64,000 nucleotides of DNA from Bacteroidetes bacterium GWF2_35_48 (GCA_001769125.1 MEOG01000082.1:18747-82746); one strand, 5' to 3'; numbered from the stretch's first letter, positions 17,464 to 57,580 are shown. Numbers and translations are program-made. Notes: generated by a model not told the origin, from the sequence alone.

Positions 17464-18381
17464 TTATTTAATAATACTATTTCTGAAATCTTCTATTTTA
17501 GCCACAAGTTTTTTAATGTCTTCGTCTTTATAAGAAATCTCGGTTTTGCCTTGTATTTTAGCAATTTTATCACCTTTTGTAACAACAGGATCAATATCTT
17601 CGTTGCTTACTTTAATAAGGTCAAAAATTGCTTTGATATCGCCAAGATCTTTTAATAAAGTTGTAATGTCTTCGTTAGGTATTTTATTTTCGTGCTCCAG
17701 CATGTTTATTAAAGTTCCTAAGGAAATTCTCTGGTCAATGATTCTAGAGGTAAGTTCCTTTGGGTTTTTGGTTGATTTAATCAACTGTGATGAAATATAA
17801 AGACCTTCAAGCCAACCACCGGCTAATATAATGGCTGCCGTCTGAGACCTGTTATTATCCTTTAGATACGAATTTGAGTTCATAAAGGTTTCAGAAATGA
17901 TCTCCATAATAGAGTCCCTGTTATTAACATTGTTTTCCAAACGATTAATAATAGACTGATCTATAGCACTTAAGATACCAAGTTTGTCTGCTAATTTTTT
18001 TGATGCAGCCATATATTTTATGGATGTCTGATTTTGATCATACAAACTAGCATAACTTAAATCAGCACTATAAACACCCAAATTTAATGCCATTTGTTTG
18101 TTTGTCGTGTACTTATTTATGTTTTCCAGCTTATTAAGAATTTCTTCATTATACTGCGCACCCGCTCTCTTTAAAAGCATAGCCGTTTCAATCGGAGAAG
18201 GTAATGAATACATTATCTGTTTAGCCTTGAAAATTTTAAAATCTGTTTCAAGATCTTCAGTGTTTCCCTGCTTGTCGTCACCTTCGGTGGTTGTTTCATT
18301 CGAGCAGCTAAATAATAATGAAGCTATCCCGACAAACATCACATACTGTAAATTTTTCAGTGTTAATAATCTAATAATCAT
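17464..18381 (-). CDS. hypothetical lipoprotein
   Basis: Lipobox-like ..IASLLFSCSNE near the N-terminus. The rest is helical with no recognisable domain. Confidence 0.5.
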   Translation of the reverse strand: MIIRLLTLKNLQYVMFVGIASLLFSCSNETTTEGDDKQGNTEDLETDFKIFKAKQIMYSLPSPIETAMLLKRAGAQYNEEILNKLENINKYTTNKQMALNLGVYSADLSYASLYDQNQTSIKYMAASKKLADKLGILSAIDQSIINRLENNVNNRDSIMEIISETFMNSNSYLKDNNRSQTAAIILAGGWLEGLYISSQLIKSTKNPKELTSRIIDQRISLGTLINMLEHENKIPNEDITTLLKDLGDIKAIFDLIKVSNEDIDPVVTKGDKIAKIQGKTEISYKDEDIKKLVAKIEDFRNSIIK

Positions 18382-50597: not shown

Positions 50598-51527
50598 ATG
50601 GACATTGTAGTTGAAAATTTAACGAAAACTTATGGTCCGCAAAGAGCTGTAGACAACATCAGTTTTCAGGTAAAAACCGGAGAGGTGCTTGGATTTCTTG
50701 GTCCGAACGGAGCAGGAAAAACTACAACCATGAAGGCAATAACCTGCTTTCTTTCTCCCACTGACGGAGACATTAAGGTTGGCGGTAATTCTGTACTGAG
50801 TAATCCTGACAAAGTAAAAAAGCTTATCGGCTATCTTCCAGAAATGAATCCTTTGTATGTAGAAATGCCTGTTATAGATTATCTGAAGTTTGTTGCAGAA
50901 TTGCAGGGCATACATAAAAACAAAATCAGGGAACGGATTAAAGAAATGGTTACTATTTGTGGGCTTGAAGGAGAAAAACACAAAAAAATCTCGGAACTTT
51001 CAAAAGGATACAGGCAACGCGTGGGGCTTGCACAGGCCCTTATTCACGATCCTGAAGTTCTTGTGCTTGACGAACCTACTGCTGGTCTTGACCCAAATCA
51101 GATTGCAGAAATCCGCGCACTGATTCGCAGCATCGGAAGATCAAAAACAGTAGTGCTTAGTTCGCATATTCTTGCAGAAGTAGAAGCTACCTGCGACCGT
51201 ATTCTAATTATCAACAAAGGAAAAATTGTTGCTGACGGAACAGCAGACGATCTTCGTAAACGTGCGCATAACAGGGAGGTTTTACGGATTTCAATTGAAG
51301 GAGCTGATTCAAATACGGCATTTCAGGCCTTGCGGGCTGTTGATACCATTGACCTTATTGATCCGCTCCCAATGAAAGAATGTAGCTTTGAAATTCATAG
51401 TAAAAATGATGCTACATCAAGAAAAGCAATTTTCTCGCTATGCGTTGAAAAAGGATGGTTTCTCACAGAAATGACCCCAATAGAAACAAAACTGGAGGAT
51501 ATTTTCAGAGAATTAACTGTAAATTAA
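50598..51527 (+). CDS. gldA: gliding-motility-associated ABC transporter ATP-binding subunit
   Basis: Walker A GPNGAGKTT, signature LSKGYRQR, Walker B LVLDEP. Followed by gldF/gldG-type genes. Confidence 0.8.
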   Translation: MDIVVENLTKTYGPQRAVDNISFQVKTGEVLGFLGPNGAGKTTTMKAITCFLSPTDGDIKVGGNSVLSNPDKVKKLIGYLPEMNPLYVEMPVIDYLKFVAELQGIHKNKIRERIKEMVTICGLEGEKHKKISELSKGYRQRVGLAQALIHDPEVLVLDEPTAGLDPNQIAEIRALIRSIGRSKTVVLSSHILAEVEATCDRILIINKGKIVADGTADDLRKRAHNREVLRISIEGADSNTAFQALRAVDTIDLIDPLPMKECSFEIHSKNDATSRKAIFSLCVEKGWFLTEMTPIETKLEDIFRELTVN

Positions 51528-51564
51528 TACATGAGATTATAAAATTTTGGAAATGTTTTTTAAA

Positions 51565-51691
51565 GTCGGCAATCGGAAAAGTCGGCAGTCGGCAGTCAGA
51601 GAGTCGGCAGTCGGCAGTCGGCAGTCAGAGAGTCGGCAGTCGGCAGTCGGATTAAGTAAGACTGTAGACTGAAGACTGAAGACTGAAGACT
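51565..51691. repeat. heptad arrays: (GTCGGCA)n with GTCAGAG interruptions, then (AGACTGA)n, forming imperfect inverted arms
   Basis: GTCGGCAGTCGGCAGTCAGAGA x2.. followed by AGACTGTAGACTGAAGACTGAAGACTGAAGAC. Lies inside the gldA-gldF spacer. Confidence 0.9.
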
Positions 51692-51736
51692 AAAAAACAT
51701 CCCCATAACATTAACTAATAAAAAAATATCATACAC

Positions 51737-52462
51737 ATGAAACAAATCTGGATAATAACAAAAAGAGAATTAAAAGCTTTTTTTGATTCGCTGATGGCTT
51801 ATATAATGATTGTTGCTTTTCTCGGATTCACGGGCTTTTTCACATGGTTGTACGGAGCCGATGTTTTCTTTATCAATCAGGCAAGCCTGCAATCTTTTTT
51901 CAGTATTTCCTATTGGACACTATTCTTTTTTATTCCTGCATTAACCATGCGATTAATTGCCGAAGAAAATAAATCCGGTACCATTGAATTATTGCTCACA
52001 AAGCCTGTAAACGACTGGCAGGTGGTAATGGGAAAATTTCTTGGAACATTGCTGTTGATACTTATCGCGCTGGCAATGACAATTCCCTATTACTTTACGG
52101 TAAGCAGTATCGGAAAAATAGATCATGGAGCTGTATGGTCAGGCTACTTGGGATTAATTCTGATGAGCGCAACCTACATCAGCATCGGGCTCTTTGCAAG
52201 CAGCATCACAAGCAATCAGATTATTGCCTTTTTACTCGCGATATTCATCGGAATAATTTTCCATATTATTTTCGATGTGCTGGCCTCAAGTTTTACAGGT
52301 TTATTAGGTGGAATCTTCAGCTATCTGAGCATTAACTCCCATTACGAATCAATTTCAAGAGGTGTAATAGACAGCAAAGACCTGATATATTTTTTATCGC
52401 TAACATTCATCTGTTTGTTTTCTACAGAGGCTTTTCTTGCAAAAAGAAATTTGTCTAAATGA
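51737..52462 (+). CDS. gldF: gliding-motility-associated ABC transporter permease
   Basis: 241 aa ABC-2 type permease, 6 TM. N-terminus ..ITKRELKAFFDS... Confidence 0.8.
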   Translation: MKQIWIITKRELKAFFDSLMAYIMIVAFLGFTGFFTWLYGADVFFINQASLQSFFSISYWTLFFFIPALTMRLIAEENKSGTIELLLTKPVNDWQVVMGKFLGTLLLILIALAMTIPYYFTVSSIGKIDHGAVWSGYLGLILMSATYISIGLFASSITSNQIIAFLLAIFIGIIFHIIFDVLASSFTGLLGGIFSYLSINSHYESISRGVIDSKDLIYFLSLTFICLFSTEAFLAKRNLSK

Positions 52463-52520
52463 TAAAGTATATTTTGTTAAATGAAATTTGAAAATAAATA
52501 AAACACGAAAAATATAAAAT

Positions 52521-54041
52521 ATGAAAACAAAAAAATCAATCCTCTATTACATTGCGGTTGTAATTGGAATATTGGTTCTCATAAATATTCTGGCCGATAA
52601 ATTTTTCTTCCGCCTTGACTTTACGGAAGACAATCGTTATACATTGAGCAACGCAACAAAAGATATTCTTGTCGGCATCAATGAAACAGTAACCATTCAG
52701 GCCTACTTTTCAGAAGATCTTCCTCCGGATATTGCCAAAACAAAAAGAGATTTTAAGGAATTGCTTGTTGAATATGCTTCACGCGCAAATGGAAAAATTG
52801 TATTTGAATTTATCAATCCGAATGTTGATGAAGCTACAGAACAAAAGGCAATGCAGTCTGGCGTGCAGCCTGTGGTAATCAATGTTCGTGATAAAGATCA
52901 GATGAAGCAGCAGAAAGCGTATCTAGGCGCGGTAATTCAAATGGGAGAGCAAAGCGATGTGATTCCTTTTATGCAACCGGGCTCTGCAATGGAATATTCG
53001 CTTTCTTCAAGCCTGAAAAAATTATCTGTTCAGGATAAACCTTCTATCGGATTTTTGCAGGGACACGGAGAACCAAATTTGAGAGCTATGCAGCAGGTGA
53101 TGGGCGCTTTAACAATTTTATACAATGCGCAACCTGTAACACAAAATGATACAGTCAATGAATTAGATAAGTTTACAACCCTAGCAATTGTCGCTCCAAC
53201 AGACTCATTTCCCGCAATACATTTACAGCAACTCGAAGAATTTTTATCCAAAGGAAAAAATCTTGTTATTGCTTTAAATAGAGTGAAAGGAGATTTTCAG
53301 ACATTAGCCGGTAGCGCAGTAAATACAGGAATTGAAAGCTGGCTTGCATCCAAAGGGCTAATTGTTGAAGAAAATTTTCTGGTAGATGCAAACTGCGGAA
53401 CAGTAGGTGTAACGCAGCAACAGGGTATGTTTTCTTATCAGACACAAATGAAATTTCATTACCTGCCTGCAATTACGAATTTCATGGAACACCCCGTTAC
53501 CAAAGGGCTGGAGTCCGTATTAATGGCTTTTGCAAGTCCTATTCAATTTAAAGGAGGCACGCAAGGAGTAAGCTATACCCCGCTTGCAAAAAGCTCTGCA
53601 AAATCGGGAACTGTTCCCGCGCAAACTTATTTTGACATTCGTAAACAATGGACAGATCGTGATTTCACAATGCCCGGACAGGTTGTAGCAGCATTACTTT
53701 CAGGTAAAATTTCCGGCGACAGAGATTCAAGAATAATACTTATTTCTGACGGAGATTTTGCTGTAAACGGCGAAGAAAGACAGGCCATGCAACAGCAACC
53801 TGATAATATTTCGCTTCTTGTAAATTCCATTGACTGGCTTTCAGATCAGACAGGTTTGATTGAATTGCGCACCAAAGGAGTAACATCACGACCCATTGAC
53901 CAAATGGAAGACGGAACAAAAACTTTGCTCAAATGGATTAATTTTCTGATACCAATTTTACTGATTATAATATTTGGATTTATACGCTTCCAGCGCAACA
54001 GAAATTTAAGAATAAAAAGAATGCAGGAGGGATATATTTAA
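52521..54041 (+). CDS. gldG: GldG family ABC transporter-associated protein
   Basis: 506 aa. N- and C-terminal TM anchors with a large periplasmic domain. Positioned after gldF. Confidence 0.75.
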   Translation: MKTKKSILYYIAVVIGILVLINILADKFFFRLDFTEDNRYTLSNATKDILVGINETVTIQAYFSEDLPPDIAKTKRDFKELLVEYASRANGKIVFEFINPNVDEATEQKAMQSGVQPVVINVRDKDQMKQQKAYLGAVIQMGEQSDVIPFMQPGSAMEYSLSSSLKKLSVQDKPSIGFLQGHGEPNLRAMQQVMGALTILYNAQPVTQNDTVNELDKFTTLAIVAPTDSFPAIHLQQLEEFLSKGKNLVIALNRVKGDFQTLAGSAVNTGIESWLASKGLIVEENFLVDANCGTVGVTQQQGMFSYQTQMKFHYLPAITNFMEHPVTKGLESVLMAFASPIQFKGGTQGVSYTPLAKSSAKSGTVPAQTYFDIRKQWTDRDFTMPGQVVAALLSGKISGDRDSRIILISDGDFAVNGEERQAMQQQPDNISLLVNSIDWLSDQTGLIELRTKGVTSRPIDQMEDGTKTLLKWINFLIPILLIIIFGFIRFQRNRNLRIKRMQEGYI

Positions 54042-54117
54042 TTAGTGTTTGTCCATAATGTCCGACCTGCTTGCAGGCAAGTTTCTGCGTTCCTCTCGAA
54101 TTGAAAAGCAATCATGT

Positions 54118-55032
54118 ACGATTAAAAATATGCAGGAAGGATATATTTAATTAAAAAAATAATACCGCTCCTATCTACGGAGCTGTATCCTGATAAAAAG
54201 ATTTTTTGTACCATAATTTCGTGCCTCTGGCAATCATAAAAATAGTTCCGTAGGAACAACATTACGATAGCCCTGTAAGGGCGACATTACGATAGTTCTA
54301 TTATAAAAACGTCATAAAATGAATTGTGAAACAAATTGCAATTAAATATTTAAAACAATATATATACTAATCTAAACAAATAACAAATGCCAAACACATA
54401 TACACAAATAAATATTCATGCAGTTTTTGCTGTAAAACATCGTGAAAACATCATTACCCGTAATTATAGAGATGAATTGCACAAATATATTTCAGGCATA
54501 CTCACGAATTTAAAACAATATCCCCTTGCTGTAAATGGGTGGAAAGATCATGTGCATATTTTTTTTGAAATGCAGCCAACATCAAACCTGTCAGATATAT
54601 TACAAATAGTAAAAGCAAATTCATCAAAATGGATTAATACAAATAATTTTGTAAAGGGTAAATTTAACTGGCAAAATGGTTTTGGAGGATTTTCTTATTC
54701 AAAATCTCAAAGAGCCAATGTAATCAGATATATTGTCAATCAGGAACAGCATCATGAAGGCATTTCATTTAAAAAAGAGTACCTGAATTTGTTGGAGAAA
54801 TTTGAAATTGATTTTAAAGATCAGTATTTATTTGAATTTTATGAATAATAATAAATACCGCTCCTATTGAGTAGGTAGCTCCATAGGAACTACGATTAAA
54901 AATATGCAGGAAGGATATATTTAATTTAAAAAATAATGCCGCTCCCACGGAGCTGTATCCTGATAAAAAGGCGATATTACGGTAGCCCTGTAAGGGCGAT
55001 ATTACGGTAGTTCCATAGGAACGACATTATCG
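54118..55032 (+). mobile_element. RAYT island: IS200-like Y1 transposase gene bracketed by direct repeat blocks rich in small hairpins
   Basis: Blocks 54118-54200 and 54892-54970 share an identical first 35 nt and the rest is near-identical with a 4-nt indel. Blocks 54242-54298 and 54971-55032 share GTTCCNTAGGAAC and GCCCTGTAAGGGC hairpins with GAYATTACGRTA spacers. Confidence 0.7.
54387..54848 (+). CDS. REP-associated tyrosine transposase (RAYT; IS200/IS605 TnpA-like Y1 HUH enzyme)
   Basis: 153 aa. QINIHAVFAVKHRE N-terminus, HUH motif HVHIFF, catalytic-Tyr helix RYIVNQEQHH. No tnpB partner. Confidence 0.85.
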   Translation: MPNTYTQINIHAVFAVKHRENIITRNYRDELHKYISGILTNLKQYPLAVNGWKDHVHIFFEMQPTSNLSDILQIVKANSSKWINTNNFVKGKFNWQNGFGGFSYSKSQRANVIRYIVNQEQHHEGISFKKEYLNLLEKFEIDFKDQYLFEFYE

Positions 55033-55078
55033 TTATAAATAATTACAATACAATAAAAAACATAAAACCATTACAATT

Positions 55079-56029
55079 ATGGCAAAAAAAATAAATATGA
55101 AAACGCTGGCAATTATTTTTATCGTGTTGCTATCATTGGTAATTTTCAAAACCGTTTATGATAACAATCGTGGAGAAAAAACATTCAAAAGCGATATAGC
55201 AACCATTGATACTGCGAACGTAACAAACATTACCTTTTTCCCTAAAGCAGAAAAAAAAGGAATTTCCCTGAAAAAATCTGCAAATACATGGCAGCTTTTA
55301 GCAAATGGAAAAACATACAAACCCGACATAAATATTATTCAGAATATTTTGTCTTCAATAGCTGTAATTAAAGCCGAACGTGTTGCCGGTACTGATAAAT
55401 CACAATGGCAGAATTTTGAAGTTTCAGATACAAGCGGTACAAAAATGATTATTGAAGTATCGGGAAAAGTAGTTTCTGAGCTTATTATCGGAAAATTTTC
55501 GTACAAACAAACCGGCGGTGGCTTTTCAATTTCTACCTATATCAGACCTGTGGGTGAAGAAACAACATATTCCGTACAAAGCCAGCTTACCATGCTTATC
55601 AACCGCGACCTGAATGCTTTTCGTGATAAAACAATATCTAAAATTGAAAAGGAAAATCTTAGCAGCATATCCTTCTCTTATCCGGGAGACAGTTCTTTCA
55701 CTTTATCCAAAACAGAAAATGGCTGGCTTGTAAACAATGAAGCTACGGACAGCAACAGCATACAAAGCTATCTGAATACAATTGCCAATTGCTCGGGTTA
55801 CGAATTTGATGATAATGCAACCAACACAACGCTTACTCCTGTATATAAAATAAAGGCACAAGGAAACAACATGCAGACCGTTGAAATAAATGCTATTCCT
55901 TCAGATTCGCTGAAACAATTTATTATTACTTCCTCTCAAAACGAAGGTATAAATTTCATTAGCGGAAAATCTAAACTGGCAGACAAAATTTTTATCTCTA
56001 AGAAAAATTTAATGGTTGGGAAAAAATAA
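55079..56029 (+). CDS. DUF4340 domain protein (usual downstream partner of gldG-type genes)
   Basis: 316 aa. N-terminal TM anchor, beta-rich. Call rests on position and size. Confidence 0.55.
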   Translation: MAKKINMKTLAIIFIVLLSLVIFKTVYDNNRGEKTFKSDIATIDTANVTNITFFPKAEKKGISLKKSANTWQLLANGKTYKPDINIIQNILSSIAVIKAERVAGTDKSQWQNFEVSDTSGTKMIIEVSGKVVSELIIGKFSYKQTGGGFSISTYIRPVGEETTYSVQSQLTMLINRDLNAFRDKTISKIEKENLSSISFSYPGDSSFTLSKTENGWLVNNEATDSNSIQSYLNTIANCSGYEFDDNATNTTLTPVYKIKAQGNNMQTVEINAIPSDSLKQFIITSSQNEGINFISGKSKLADKIFISKKNLMVGKK

Positions 56030-57092: not shown

Positions 57093-57214
57093 TGCCTGAT
57101 AAGAAAACATCAAGTTCAAGGCTTGCGAAGACCTGAAAATTAGGAGTGTACTAATGTACATGACTACTTTTCAGGTCAAGCGTAACGATGAAATTGATGT
57201 TTTCTTGCAGGCAC
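57093..57214. repeat. about 120-nt extended imperfect hairpin
   Basis: Outer arms TGCCTGATAAGAAAACATCAA / TTGATGTTTTCTTGCAGGCA. Inner arms GACCTGAAAA (57130-57139) / TTTTCAGGTC (57168-57177). Confidence 0.8.
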
Positions 57215-57363
57215 TATATAGCTTTACCTTTTCATTACAACTCGTATTATAAACAGGGCACTCCCATGGAACTTCCATATTTTTATATTTTTTTTTATGG
57301 TTGGGAAACAATAATTACTTGCAAAAAACAAAAGATCTATTTGAAAAATTTGCGCTATGACAG

Positions 57364-57580
57364 ACGTACAATAGATGTACAATTGTATTCCTACCGTATT
57401 CCTATCGAATTCCTAATTTCTATTTTGATGTTCAATAGTGCAACAATAGATGTTCAATTGTTCCTTCGATAGATGTTCAGTAGATATTCAATAGTGCTAC
57501 AATTGATGTTCGGTAGATGTACAATTGTATTTCTATCGAACACCTATTGAATTCCTACTGTATTCCTAATTCCTACATCT
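57364..57580. repeat. second locus of the 11-nt periodic GTACAATTG / CAATAGATG repeat family (two sub-arrays with inverted tails)
   Basis: ..GTACAATAGATGTACAATTGTATTCCTACCGTATTCCTATCGAATTCC.. and ..GTTCAATAGTGCAACAATAGATGTTCAATTG..GTACAATTGTATTTCTATCGAA... Confidence 0.85.

Follow-up and report, generated by a model that had tools for sequence, protein, structure and literature searches.

An IS200-like Y1 nuclease gene and its hairpin-tail units at an apparently split gldG-DUF4340 junction in Bacteroidetes bacterium GWF2_35_48

The window studied here is a stretch of 64,000 nt from Bacteroidetes bacterium GWF2_35_48, a metagenome-assembled genome (MAG), and all coordinates below are positions in this window. 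Between gldG and a gene encoding a DUF4340 protein it holds an intact gene for a 153-aa Y1 HUH nuclease (54387-54848, + strand), recognized by profiles, alignment and motifs, whose sequence fits the TnpA-Y1 subclass 1.2 type and which lies among small hairpins and direct repeats. We think it probable that an insert of ~1,035 nt, carrying this single-copy gene and its cognate 25-nt hairpin units, has split an ancestral overlap between gldG and the DUF4340 gene. The window locus is an ordinary member of its family and its interest lies at the family level, in the link between the Y1 protein and a defined, phylum-wide hairpin-tail unit, a link that appears to be undescribed in the literature searched.

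An initial annotation of this DNA had described small hairpins separated by spacers in both flanks of the gene. These are indeed present on both sides and above chance, and hairpin and “spacer” together form one 25-nt unit, in which a 13-nt hairpin with a 5-bp stem and a 3-nt loop precedes a 12-nt 3' tail and which occurs in both orientations. The tail reads GAYATTACGRTA in the window and GACATTATGGTA in most relatives. Three local matches to GTTCCNTAGGAAC were found against 0.13 expected by chance in the window (an extra match with one mismatch at 17714 was taken as chance), two to GCCCTGTAAGGGC against 0.01 and four to GAYATTACGRTAG against 0.11, and neither these motifs nor other parts of the flanks were found above noise elsewhere in the 64 kb by motif scans and BLAST. 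The data support a view of the flanks as a cluster of hairpins resembling repetitive extragenic palindromic (REP) sequences.

The association of unit and gene extends to every homologue sampled through the protein. Sampling through the protein alone gave seven contexts (the window and loci L011/L014, L018, L155, L156, L157 and L159) and units lie within ~300 nt of the gene in all seven. At the homologue loci the unit is again a 13-nt hairpin with a 5-bp stem and 3-nt loop followed by a conserved tail of 12-13 nt, accompanied by reverse complements. The tail is GATATTATGGTA in L011/L014, GACCNTTTGGTA in L018, GTAAGTATGGTAG in L155/L156, ATTATGGTA in L157 (Chlorobi) and GTAATATTTGTAG in Bernardetia (L159), where the protein is 46% identical, and the variant changes together with the protein lineage. 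Usually forward units stand upstream, and the stop codon is immediately followed by an inverted unit (L094, L115, L155-L157, L159). The window has the same layout, with forward units at 54245-54294 and a truncated inverted unit directly after the Y1 stop, and the gene thus lies between inverted units, as do the genes of tyrosine transposases associated with REPs (RAYTs). A BLAST search with the Bernardetia unit found only local copies on its own 602-kb plasmid; in a 7.3-Gb database mismatched 25-nt matches fall below threshold and that search is hence uninformative. Some of these loci have features of their own. Four forward units end ~10 nt before the ATG of the homologue in Pedobacter jeongneungensis H1ai (L115 1690-1870). 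Downstream of the homologue P0010 on a 4.16-Mb contig (L018 4460-5200), three inverted units with 25-nt spacing precede a composite repeat of ~120 nt that has two hairpins and is itself tandemly repeated at least 4 times, which amounts to a higher-order array. Two contigs start with Illumina adapter-like sequence (GTGACTGGAGTTCAGACGTGTGCTCTTCCGATCT; L014 1-50 and L138 1-50), an assembly artefact.

Units also occur away from the gene. We scanned 185,579 representative genomes with GYYCYNTARGRRCRAYATTAYGRTA, a 38-bit pattern for which counts per genome are lower bounds, and found at least 119 blocks of 8 kb that contain a unit against ~4 expected by chance (our estimate from the pattern information). 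Among the blocks listed almost all come from Bacteroidota or Ignavibacteriota. A homologue with 55-71% identity lies beside the units, often arrays of 4-9, in 20 of the 119, against ~0.2% that we would expect for a single-copy gene by our own estimate, and about 99 have units with no homologue within the block. Several genomes carry units on 4-11 separate contigs: at least 11 contigs or scaffolds in Bact_23, at least 7 scaffolds in Polluticaenibacter yanchengensis LY-5 (L021, L032, L065, L075, L097, L116, L121) and at least 6 contigs or scaffolds in BP8.bin14. Both the Y1 gene and separate unit blocks were found in JALVEG01 and CAWGGG01. Taken over 335 units, the consensus reads A-GCCCC-GTA-GGGGC-GACATTATGGTA-G, and 97% of the units have A at position -1. 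Most clusters are arrays on one strand that repeat every ~50 nt or, less commonly, every 25 nt as they do in the window, and many have the order “- - + +”; a four-unit array with a 266-nt period was seen in L121 of Polluticaenibacter yanchengensis LY-5. A few unit matches fell in MAGs labelled Proteobacteria, Methylacidiphilales and Bifidobacterium (L068, L098, L102), which may be due to chance, to binning contamination or to real occurrence outside Bacteroidota.

The stem of the unit is maintained as a structure. For units defined by the tail alone, excluding those that satisfy the scan pattern (n=150), a perfect 5-bp stem was found in 75 and 4 of 5 pairs in another 25, and none of the 150 slid controls reached 4 pairs. 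These units have fifteen different stem sequences and structure is therefore kept while sequence varies, so that the hairpins covary. Units are also extragenic: 4 of 171 lie inside open reading frames (ORFs) of at least 120 aa, against 79% of random 25-mers. At the family level, in genomes other than the source genome, the units are thus repetitive, extragenic and palindromic, the properties that define REP sequences and bacterial interspersed mosaic elements (BIMEs). The tail sequence was not found in this sense in the literature searched and no Rfam family matches it; in the window a permissive Rfam search of 51400-55300 gave only one match at chance level (RT-1, 22 vs 106 bits). A metagenome scan with the source-type tail AGYYCYNNNRGRRCRAYATTACGRTA returned 14 single matches, none of them the source locus, in a collection that lacks the source organism and is uninformative on the source genome.

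Could the hairpins instead be host terminators or RNA-stability elements that were duplicated by slippage and have nothing to do with an accidental or inactive Y1 gene? Three of them do score as terminator-like on the minus strand, no units were found elsewhere in the window, and a role of the Y1 protein is a predicted one. We nevertheless regard this explanation as very unlikely, given units beside the gene in seven of seven contexts and the gene in 20 of 119 unit blocks, tail variants that change with the protein lineage, catalytic residues that are all intact and invariant, and the missing Rfam match.

The protein itself is well defined. The initial annotation had pointed to the Y1 HUH hallmarks of the 153-aa ORF, and these stand: the protein has the motifs KDHVHIFF and RYIVNQEQHH, with key residues D54-H55-V56-H57, W95-Q96 and the catalytic Y115 within YIVNQEQHH, and it matches Pfam Y1_Tnp (PF01797) over profile positions 2-121 of 121 scoring 82.3 bits where the cutoff is 23 (E = 4e-23). 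Among solved structures the closest in sequence are the TnpA proteins of IS608 and ISDra2 (E ~4e-4), HUH and Tyr aligning with those of IS608 TnpA; the E. coli TnpA-REP chain was not among the PDB sequence matches at E < 0.01. More than 1,650 homologues were found in a large protein collection, and the best 120 are nearly all of 153 aa and 63-75% identical, mostly from MAGs of Bacteroidales and other Bacteroidota, plus Chlorobi. In an alignment of 25 members with 56-75% identity to the window protein, D54/H55/V56/H57, W95/Q96, Y115, Q119 and H123 are invariant, as is a C-terminal block of F128, E131, Y132, Y147, F149 and F151; the mean column identity of the family is 72%, which is highly conserved.

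These features agree with the description of subclass 1.2 by Quentin et al. (2018, BMC Genomics 19:475; PMC6006769), who place it close to IS200, without the properties of an insertion sequence (IS), with “REP: no”, at low copy number in Bacteroidetes and Cyanobacteria, and with a length of ~148 aa and a specific C-terminal domain. The motif set DH[IV]H, WQ and Y---Q--HH in Table 1 of PMC6006769 corresponds to DHVH, WQ and YIVNQEQHH of the window protein. Its 153 aa and invariant C-terminal block agree with the published description, which was used rather than the authors' hidden Markov model (HMM), and its copy number and taxon agree as well (a single context on 23 contigs, a single copy in the window, a Bacteroidetes MAG as source). 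By sequence the window protein thus fits TnpA-Y1 subclass 1.2, which is IS200-like and non-IS, rather than a canonical RAYT. The earlier proposal of a domesticated RAYT holds for a lone Y1 gene at a single locus but not for the family: the protein reaches the Y1_Tnp profile, as had been anticipated, yet only 22 bits against the 80-bit cutoff of NCBIfam REP_Tyr_transpos NF047646 (RAYT), and it passes the NCBIfam IS200 model NF033573 (66.6 vs 55 bits), a model that evidently lumps subclass 1.2 with subclass 1.1. The remark in the same annotation that tnpB is absent proved correct, as ORF and profile searches detected none in the neighbourhood of the Y1 gene.

The IS200 match, together with IS608 and ISDra2 TnpA as best solved relatives, raises an alternative in which the locus is an ordinary autonomous IS of the IS200 group, ~0.75 kb long, with tnpA only and single-copy here, its flanking hairpins being the ends and the scattered clusters being solo ends or derivatives of the miniature inverted-repeat transposable element (MITE) kind. 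The size of 153 aa and the period of 774 bp between the repeats described below are IS200-like, forward hairpins stand on the same strand on both sides of the gene, and contexts differ among lineages, so the gene has moved. In our view this alternative is unlikely. Identical proteins were found on 23 contigs of several assemblies, a sample with no complete source genome, and always in the order gldG-Y1-DUF4340, with no second copy seen; tblastn found no second Y1 copy in the window. No homologue of at least 60% identity was found among 72,556 plasmids or 50,697 phage records, from which the gene is essentially absent, and full-length plasmid matches occur only on two non-mobilizable Bacteroidota replicons of ~0.6 Mb. 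One context is shared by two lineages with proteins 75% and 74% identical to that of the window, and the mean column identity given above also speaks against an ordinary IS. The Y motif is Y---Q--HH and not the Y[IV]ENQ of subclass 1.1. Moreover forward units upstream with inverted units downstream are the pattern of RAYT genes, not of the same-strand ends of IS200/IS605, and the flanks look more like arrays of several units than like a pair of defined ends. Forward hairpins do occur on both sides of the gene, as same-strand ends would, but in arrays mixed with inverted units, in which unique ends cannot be drawn. Homologues do occupy different genomic contexts in different lineages, and the gene therefore moves on long time scales, but it does not behave like a multiplying IS.

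In two of the seven contexts reached through the protein, the Y1 gene is part of a cas operon: P0054 stands between DevR/Cas7-like genes and Cas4-Cas1 (L156 2501-2962) and P0049 of Chlorobi between Cas3 and Cas4 (L157 2501-2965). The nearest called gene is on the same strand as Y1 upstream in 7/7 contexts and downstream in 6/7.

Relatives show what the junction looked like without the Y1 gene. By profile searches its neighbours in the window are GldG (PF09822/DUF7088; TIGR03521 below its cutoff) and the DUF4340 protein. Loci found through DUF4340 orthologues provide the empty site that the initial annotation had proposed to look for: in L139 and L158 the end of gldG overlaps DUF4340 by 8 nt (..GGTTATGTTTAA..), and in L140 they are called 4 nt apart, although an overlapping in-frame ATG is present there also. 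From these three relatives with a contiguous or overlapping junction it follows that the window carries an insert of ~1,035 nt (~54045-55078), in line with the earlier statement that the element separates the two genes. The displaced DUF4340 gene (MAKKINMKTL.., 55079-56029, + strand), identified by ORF, profile and relatives, has its start inside the gldG stop region in relatives. The true 3' end of gldG (..KRMQEGYI*) is at 54012-54044 (+ strand; here copy S0 of the stop region, from sequence and repeat comparison). Its C-terminus KRM[EQ]EGY[VI]* is conserved in the orthologues L139, L140 and L158, so that the gldG end at 54012-54044 is ancestral and the other versions in the window are copies of it.

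Two such copies lie in direct repeats that flank the Y1 gene, as had been noted previously together with the threefold occurrence of the gldG stop region; both observations were confirmed, with a small correction to the length of the identical stretch. Repeat A (54117-54200, + strand) contains a pseudo-copy of the stop region with its core at 54130-54153, and repeat A' (54891-54970, + strand) a second with its core at 54904-54926. They are 84 and 80 nt long, and their first 36 nt are identical, not 35, since a T at 54117/54891 is to be added; beyond them lie 3 substitutions and, within the GCTCC hairpin loop, an indel of 4 nt. A repeat search gave sub-matches of 96% (54117-54171/54891-54945) and 100% (54177-54200/54947-54970), and a second repeat block, B/B' (54261-54301/54976-55016), is 90% identical. 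The gldG end at 54012-54044 matches the copies at 29 of 33 positions and its core 54021-54044 at 23 of 24, with a BLAST E = 1.8e-5 within the window. Both A and A' keep the GAA codon of the outgroup where the live gldG now has GAG, which fits an origin of the copies from this lineage's own gldG. A candidate fourth copy of the gldG end, degenerate and located just upstream of the DUF4340 ATG, shares only AATAAAAA and TTATG and was not convincing.

In the insert the units and repeats are arranged as follows. Directly after the gldG stop an inverted unit (54052-54077, - strand), seen in the sequence as the reverse-complement tail (TCCATAATGTC) followed by the hairpin CCTGC-TT-GCAGG, lies within the 72-nt segment 54045-54116 between S0 and A, in the layout of the homologue loci. 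Repeat A has in order a tail-like TACGAT, the stop pseudo-copy, an inverted unit with ATAATACC and the hairpin GCTCC-TATCTAC-GGAGC (54167-54183), and TGTATCCTGATAAAAAG; as single-stranded DNA (ssDNA) it folds at z = -3.1. Between A and the B block the left side has 51 extra nt, found on that side only, that include an inverted unit (54209-54233, - strand) of TACCATAATTTC and the imperfect hairpin GTGCC-TCT-GGCAA. Block B (54245-54301, + strand), identified by repeats and motif matches, has two forward 25-nt units and a degenerate third: unit 1 is GTTCC-GTA-GGAAC with the tail AACATTACGATA and unit 2 GCCCT-GTA-AGGGC with GACATTACGATA. Segment C (54849-54890, + strand) begins after the Y1 stop with a truncated inverted unit (AATAAATACC-GCTCC-TAT..), in the position directly after the stop codon that the first inverted unit has in homologues also, and continues with the forward hairpin GCTCC-ATA-GGAAC (54878-54890). 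Repeat A' follows, its inverted unit having the hairpin GCTCC-CAC-GGAGC (54941-54953), and then block B' (54971-55034, + strand, again from repeats and motif matches) with a tail and two forward units, GCCCT-GTA-AGGGC with GATATTACGGTA and GTTCC-ATA-GGAAC with GACATTATCGTT.

The direct repeats are best read as the remnant of a local tandem duplication. Such repeats flank the Y1 gene in 13/22 family loci, and three loci are informative as to their origin: in L073 the complete gene precedes a second copy of 337 nt that is 97% identical and truncated at its 5' end, the upstream module of L094 retains 17 nt from the 3' end of the gene itself, and L011 has a tandem duplication of ~320 nt of the upstream module. 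Because L073, L094 and L011 show such remnants, we propose for the window a tandem duplication with a second gene copy that was lost. On this reconstruction from sequence comparison, the insert ~54045-55078 would have entered the junction where the gldG stop overlapped the DUF4340 start, an older duplication would have copied the last ~33 nt of gldG (the S0/A pair), and a later local tandem duplication with a period of 774 bp would have made A+B and A'+B' before the second copy of the gene disappeared. Since the gldG stop overlapped the DUF4340 start, only insertions that copy the stop/start region would leave both genes intact, and both would have stayed intact because this shared region was copied. 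A different origin for the three gldG-stop copies would be attachment-site duplication, with small circles integrated site-specifically into the 3' end of gldG and the Y1 gene as cargo; integrases typically leave direct repeats that restore a target gene's 3' end, and there are three copies in direct order. We find this highly improbable, as neither the insert nor its neighbourhood has a gene for an integrase or recombinase, the cargo would be only 72 nt and ~740 nt, the repeats run well past the gldG core into element sequence and differ by indels, and other family loci duplicate the end of the Y1 gene itself, not that of a host gene.

Binding of hairpins on ssDNA with cutting and rejoining is established for IS608 TnpA and E. 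coli TnpA-REP. By analogy with these enzymes the subclass 1.2 protein most likely recognizes the hairpin on ssDNA and cleaves in or beside the tail, and the conserved stretch ~12 nt 3' of the hairpin recalls the position of the right-end cleavage site of IS608. The protein would bind, cut and rejoin at the units and in this way seed and rearrange unit clusters, perhaps contributing to the arrays and duplications; its own gene would rarely move. The arrays may supply either microhomology or enzyme sites for the A/A' boundary. An enzyme-made, site-specific boundary was considered, since a tail-like TACGAT is found there, and rejected, as the joint at 54890/54891 lacks 5 nt of the normal tail; we treat the boundary as microhomology rather than a clean cleavage joint.

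Several observations weigh against our reading of the insert as a Y1 gene with cognate units. Beyond the locus no units were found in the remaining ~63 kb of the window or in the extra sequence of the same-strain assemblies L002 and L004, and in other genomes copy number looks low, with few clusters per genome, for example 1-2 blocks per megabase-sized contig. The protein passes an NCBI equivalog model for IS200, and the hairpin/TACGAT joint at 54890/54891 is not a clean site-specific joint. The A-run after the stop in A and A' is of low complexity and could be either old 5' coding sequence of DUF4340 or the ATAATRYC motif of the element, since both fit. The order of the duplication events is a reconstruction, and the ten assemblies, which represent one strain (over the 1.1-kb region nine agree exactly and one differs at three adjacent bases), give no polymorphism that would mark dynamic parts. 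The initial interpretation as a footprint of insertion or duplication at a REP cluster survives for a lone Y1 gene in a REP-like cluster splitting gldG from DUF4340, and was imprecise as to the protein family.

From a comparative point of view the family shares traits with several known systems. It resembles subclass 1.2 as published (PMC6006769) in DH[IV]H, WQ and Y---Q--HH, a length of ~150 aa, the C-terminal block, low copy number, presence in Bacteroidetes and lack of IS behaviour, but differs from the published “REP: no” in that each sampled member is flanked by the 25-nt unit, which also occurs away from the gene. With the REP/RAYT and REPIN (REP doublets forming hairpins) systems of Gammaproteobacteria (Nunvar 2010; Bertels & Rainey 2011, PMC3116915; Ton-Hoang 2012; Messing 2012, PMC3479197) it has in common a single-copy Y1 gene between inverted palindromic units, units that are extragenic, clustered and often in head-to-head pairs, the absence of tnpB, and absence of the gene from plasmids. 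In contrast to these, the window protein is of class 1 (IS200-like) and not class 2, fails NF047646 and has YIVNQE instead of YIxxNP; the units of its family are much smaller, with a 5-bp stem and a conserved 3' tail in place of the 5' GTAG head, and apparently form a handful of clusters per genome rather than hundreds; and their consensus is conserved across orders of a phylum whereas ordinary REPs are species-specific. IS200, IS608 and ISDra2 (subclass 1.1) are the closest in structure and HMM match and have small hairpins near the gene, yet here no multiple identical copies were seen, arrays and inverted units apparently replace the one left and right end, the Y motif is different and plasmids were not found to carry the gene. 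The “IS200 Group 3” described by Bertels et al. 2017 is RAYT-like: it lacks duplicates, is absent from plasmids and is flanked by 16-mers that occur ~21 times per replicon (PMC5581495). This description matches the window family and the same clade may be meant, although the main text gives no motifs or taxa for the group; according to Quentin et al., Bertels et al. did not separate subclass 1.2 from 1.1 (PMC6006769). Subclass 2.6 (Bertels Group 5), also found in Bacteroidetes, is set apart by NH[LIV]H, YIH[QN]NP, ~179 aa and an alphaC-beta4 insertion, none of which the window protein has.

These comparisons lead us to a tentative proposal, which we judge somewhat more doubtful than credible: subclass 1.2 could supply the protein of a second REP/RAYT-like system, independent of the first and spread over Bacteroidota, Ignavibacteriota and Chlorobi, with the 25-nt unit as its DNA partner, few clusters per genome, a host-level role and an intermediate standing between IS200 and RAYT. 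Slow change is seen in the protein as well as in the unit, and this would argue for a role at the level of the host and not for selfish spread. If our hypothesis were correct, the clade would represent a living intermediate between IS200 and RAYTs, as Bertels et al. speculated, and the pairing of a Y1 nuclease with dispersed hairpins would extend from the proteobacterial class 2 to an IS200-like clade in another phylum, which bears on whether domestication happened once or several times. The placement of two of seven contexts in cas operons is possibly related to such a system. Subclass 1.2, recorded without cognate repeats, in any case gains a concrete and testable DNA partner; the unit is short and sharply defined, and cultured carriers are Pedobacter jeongneungensis H1ai (gene beside four units) and Polluticaenibacter yanchengensis LY-5 (units).

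The locus is also an example of operon remodelling in which translationally coupled genes now lie ~1 kb apart. A terminator scan found no terminator-like site on the + strand of the insert, and judging from the sequence it is plausible that transcription from the gld operon reads through it. A sigma-70 promoter scan stayed at the level of shuffled sequence and was not used, the model being ill-suited to Bacteroidota promoters. There is a second intergenic expansion within the same operon: the gldA/gldF spacer (51528-51736) is 209 nt long against 17-53 nt in L139 and L140, and its partly self-complementary, microsatellite-like insert consists of tandem heptamers, (AGTCGGC)n at ~51565-51650 and then (GACTGAA)n at ~51660-51692. 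Further downstream, three assemblies of the same strain diverge right after TTGCAGGCACTA (57216-57222 in the window, ~12830 in L002 and ~12836 in L004), which could reflect a hot spot of recombination, heterogeneity within the strain or a break in the assembly. Upstream of the divergence point is a hairpin with a 10-bp stem, GACCTGAAAA..TTTTCAGGTC (57131-57178), and downstream of it are repeated TAGATGT(A/T)CAAT motifs (57360-57560).

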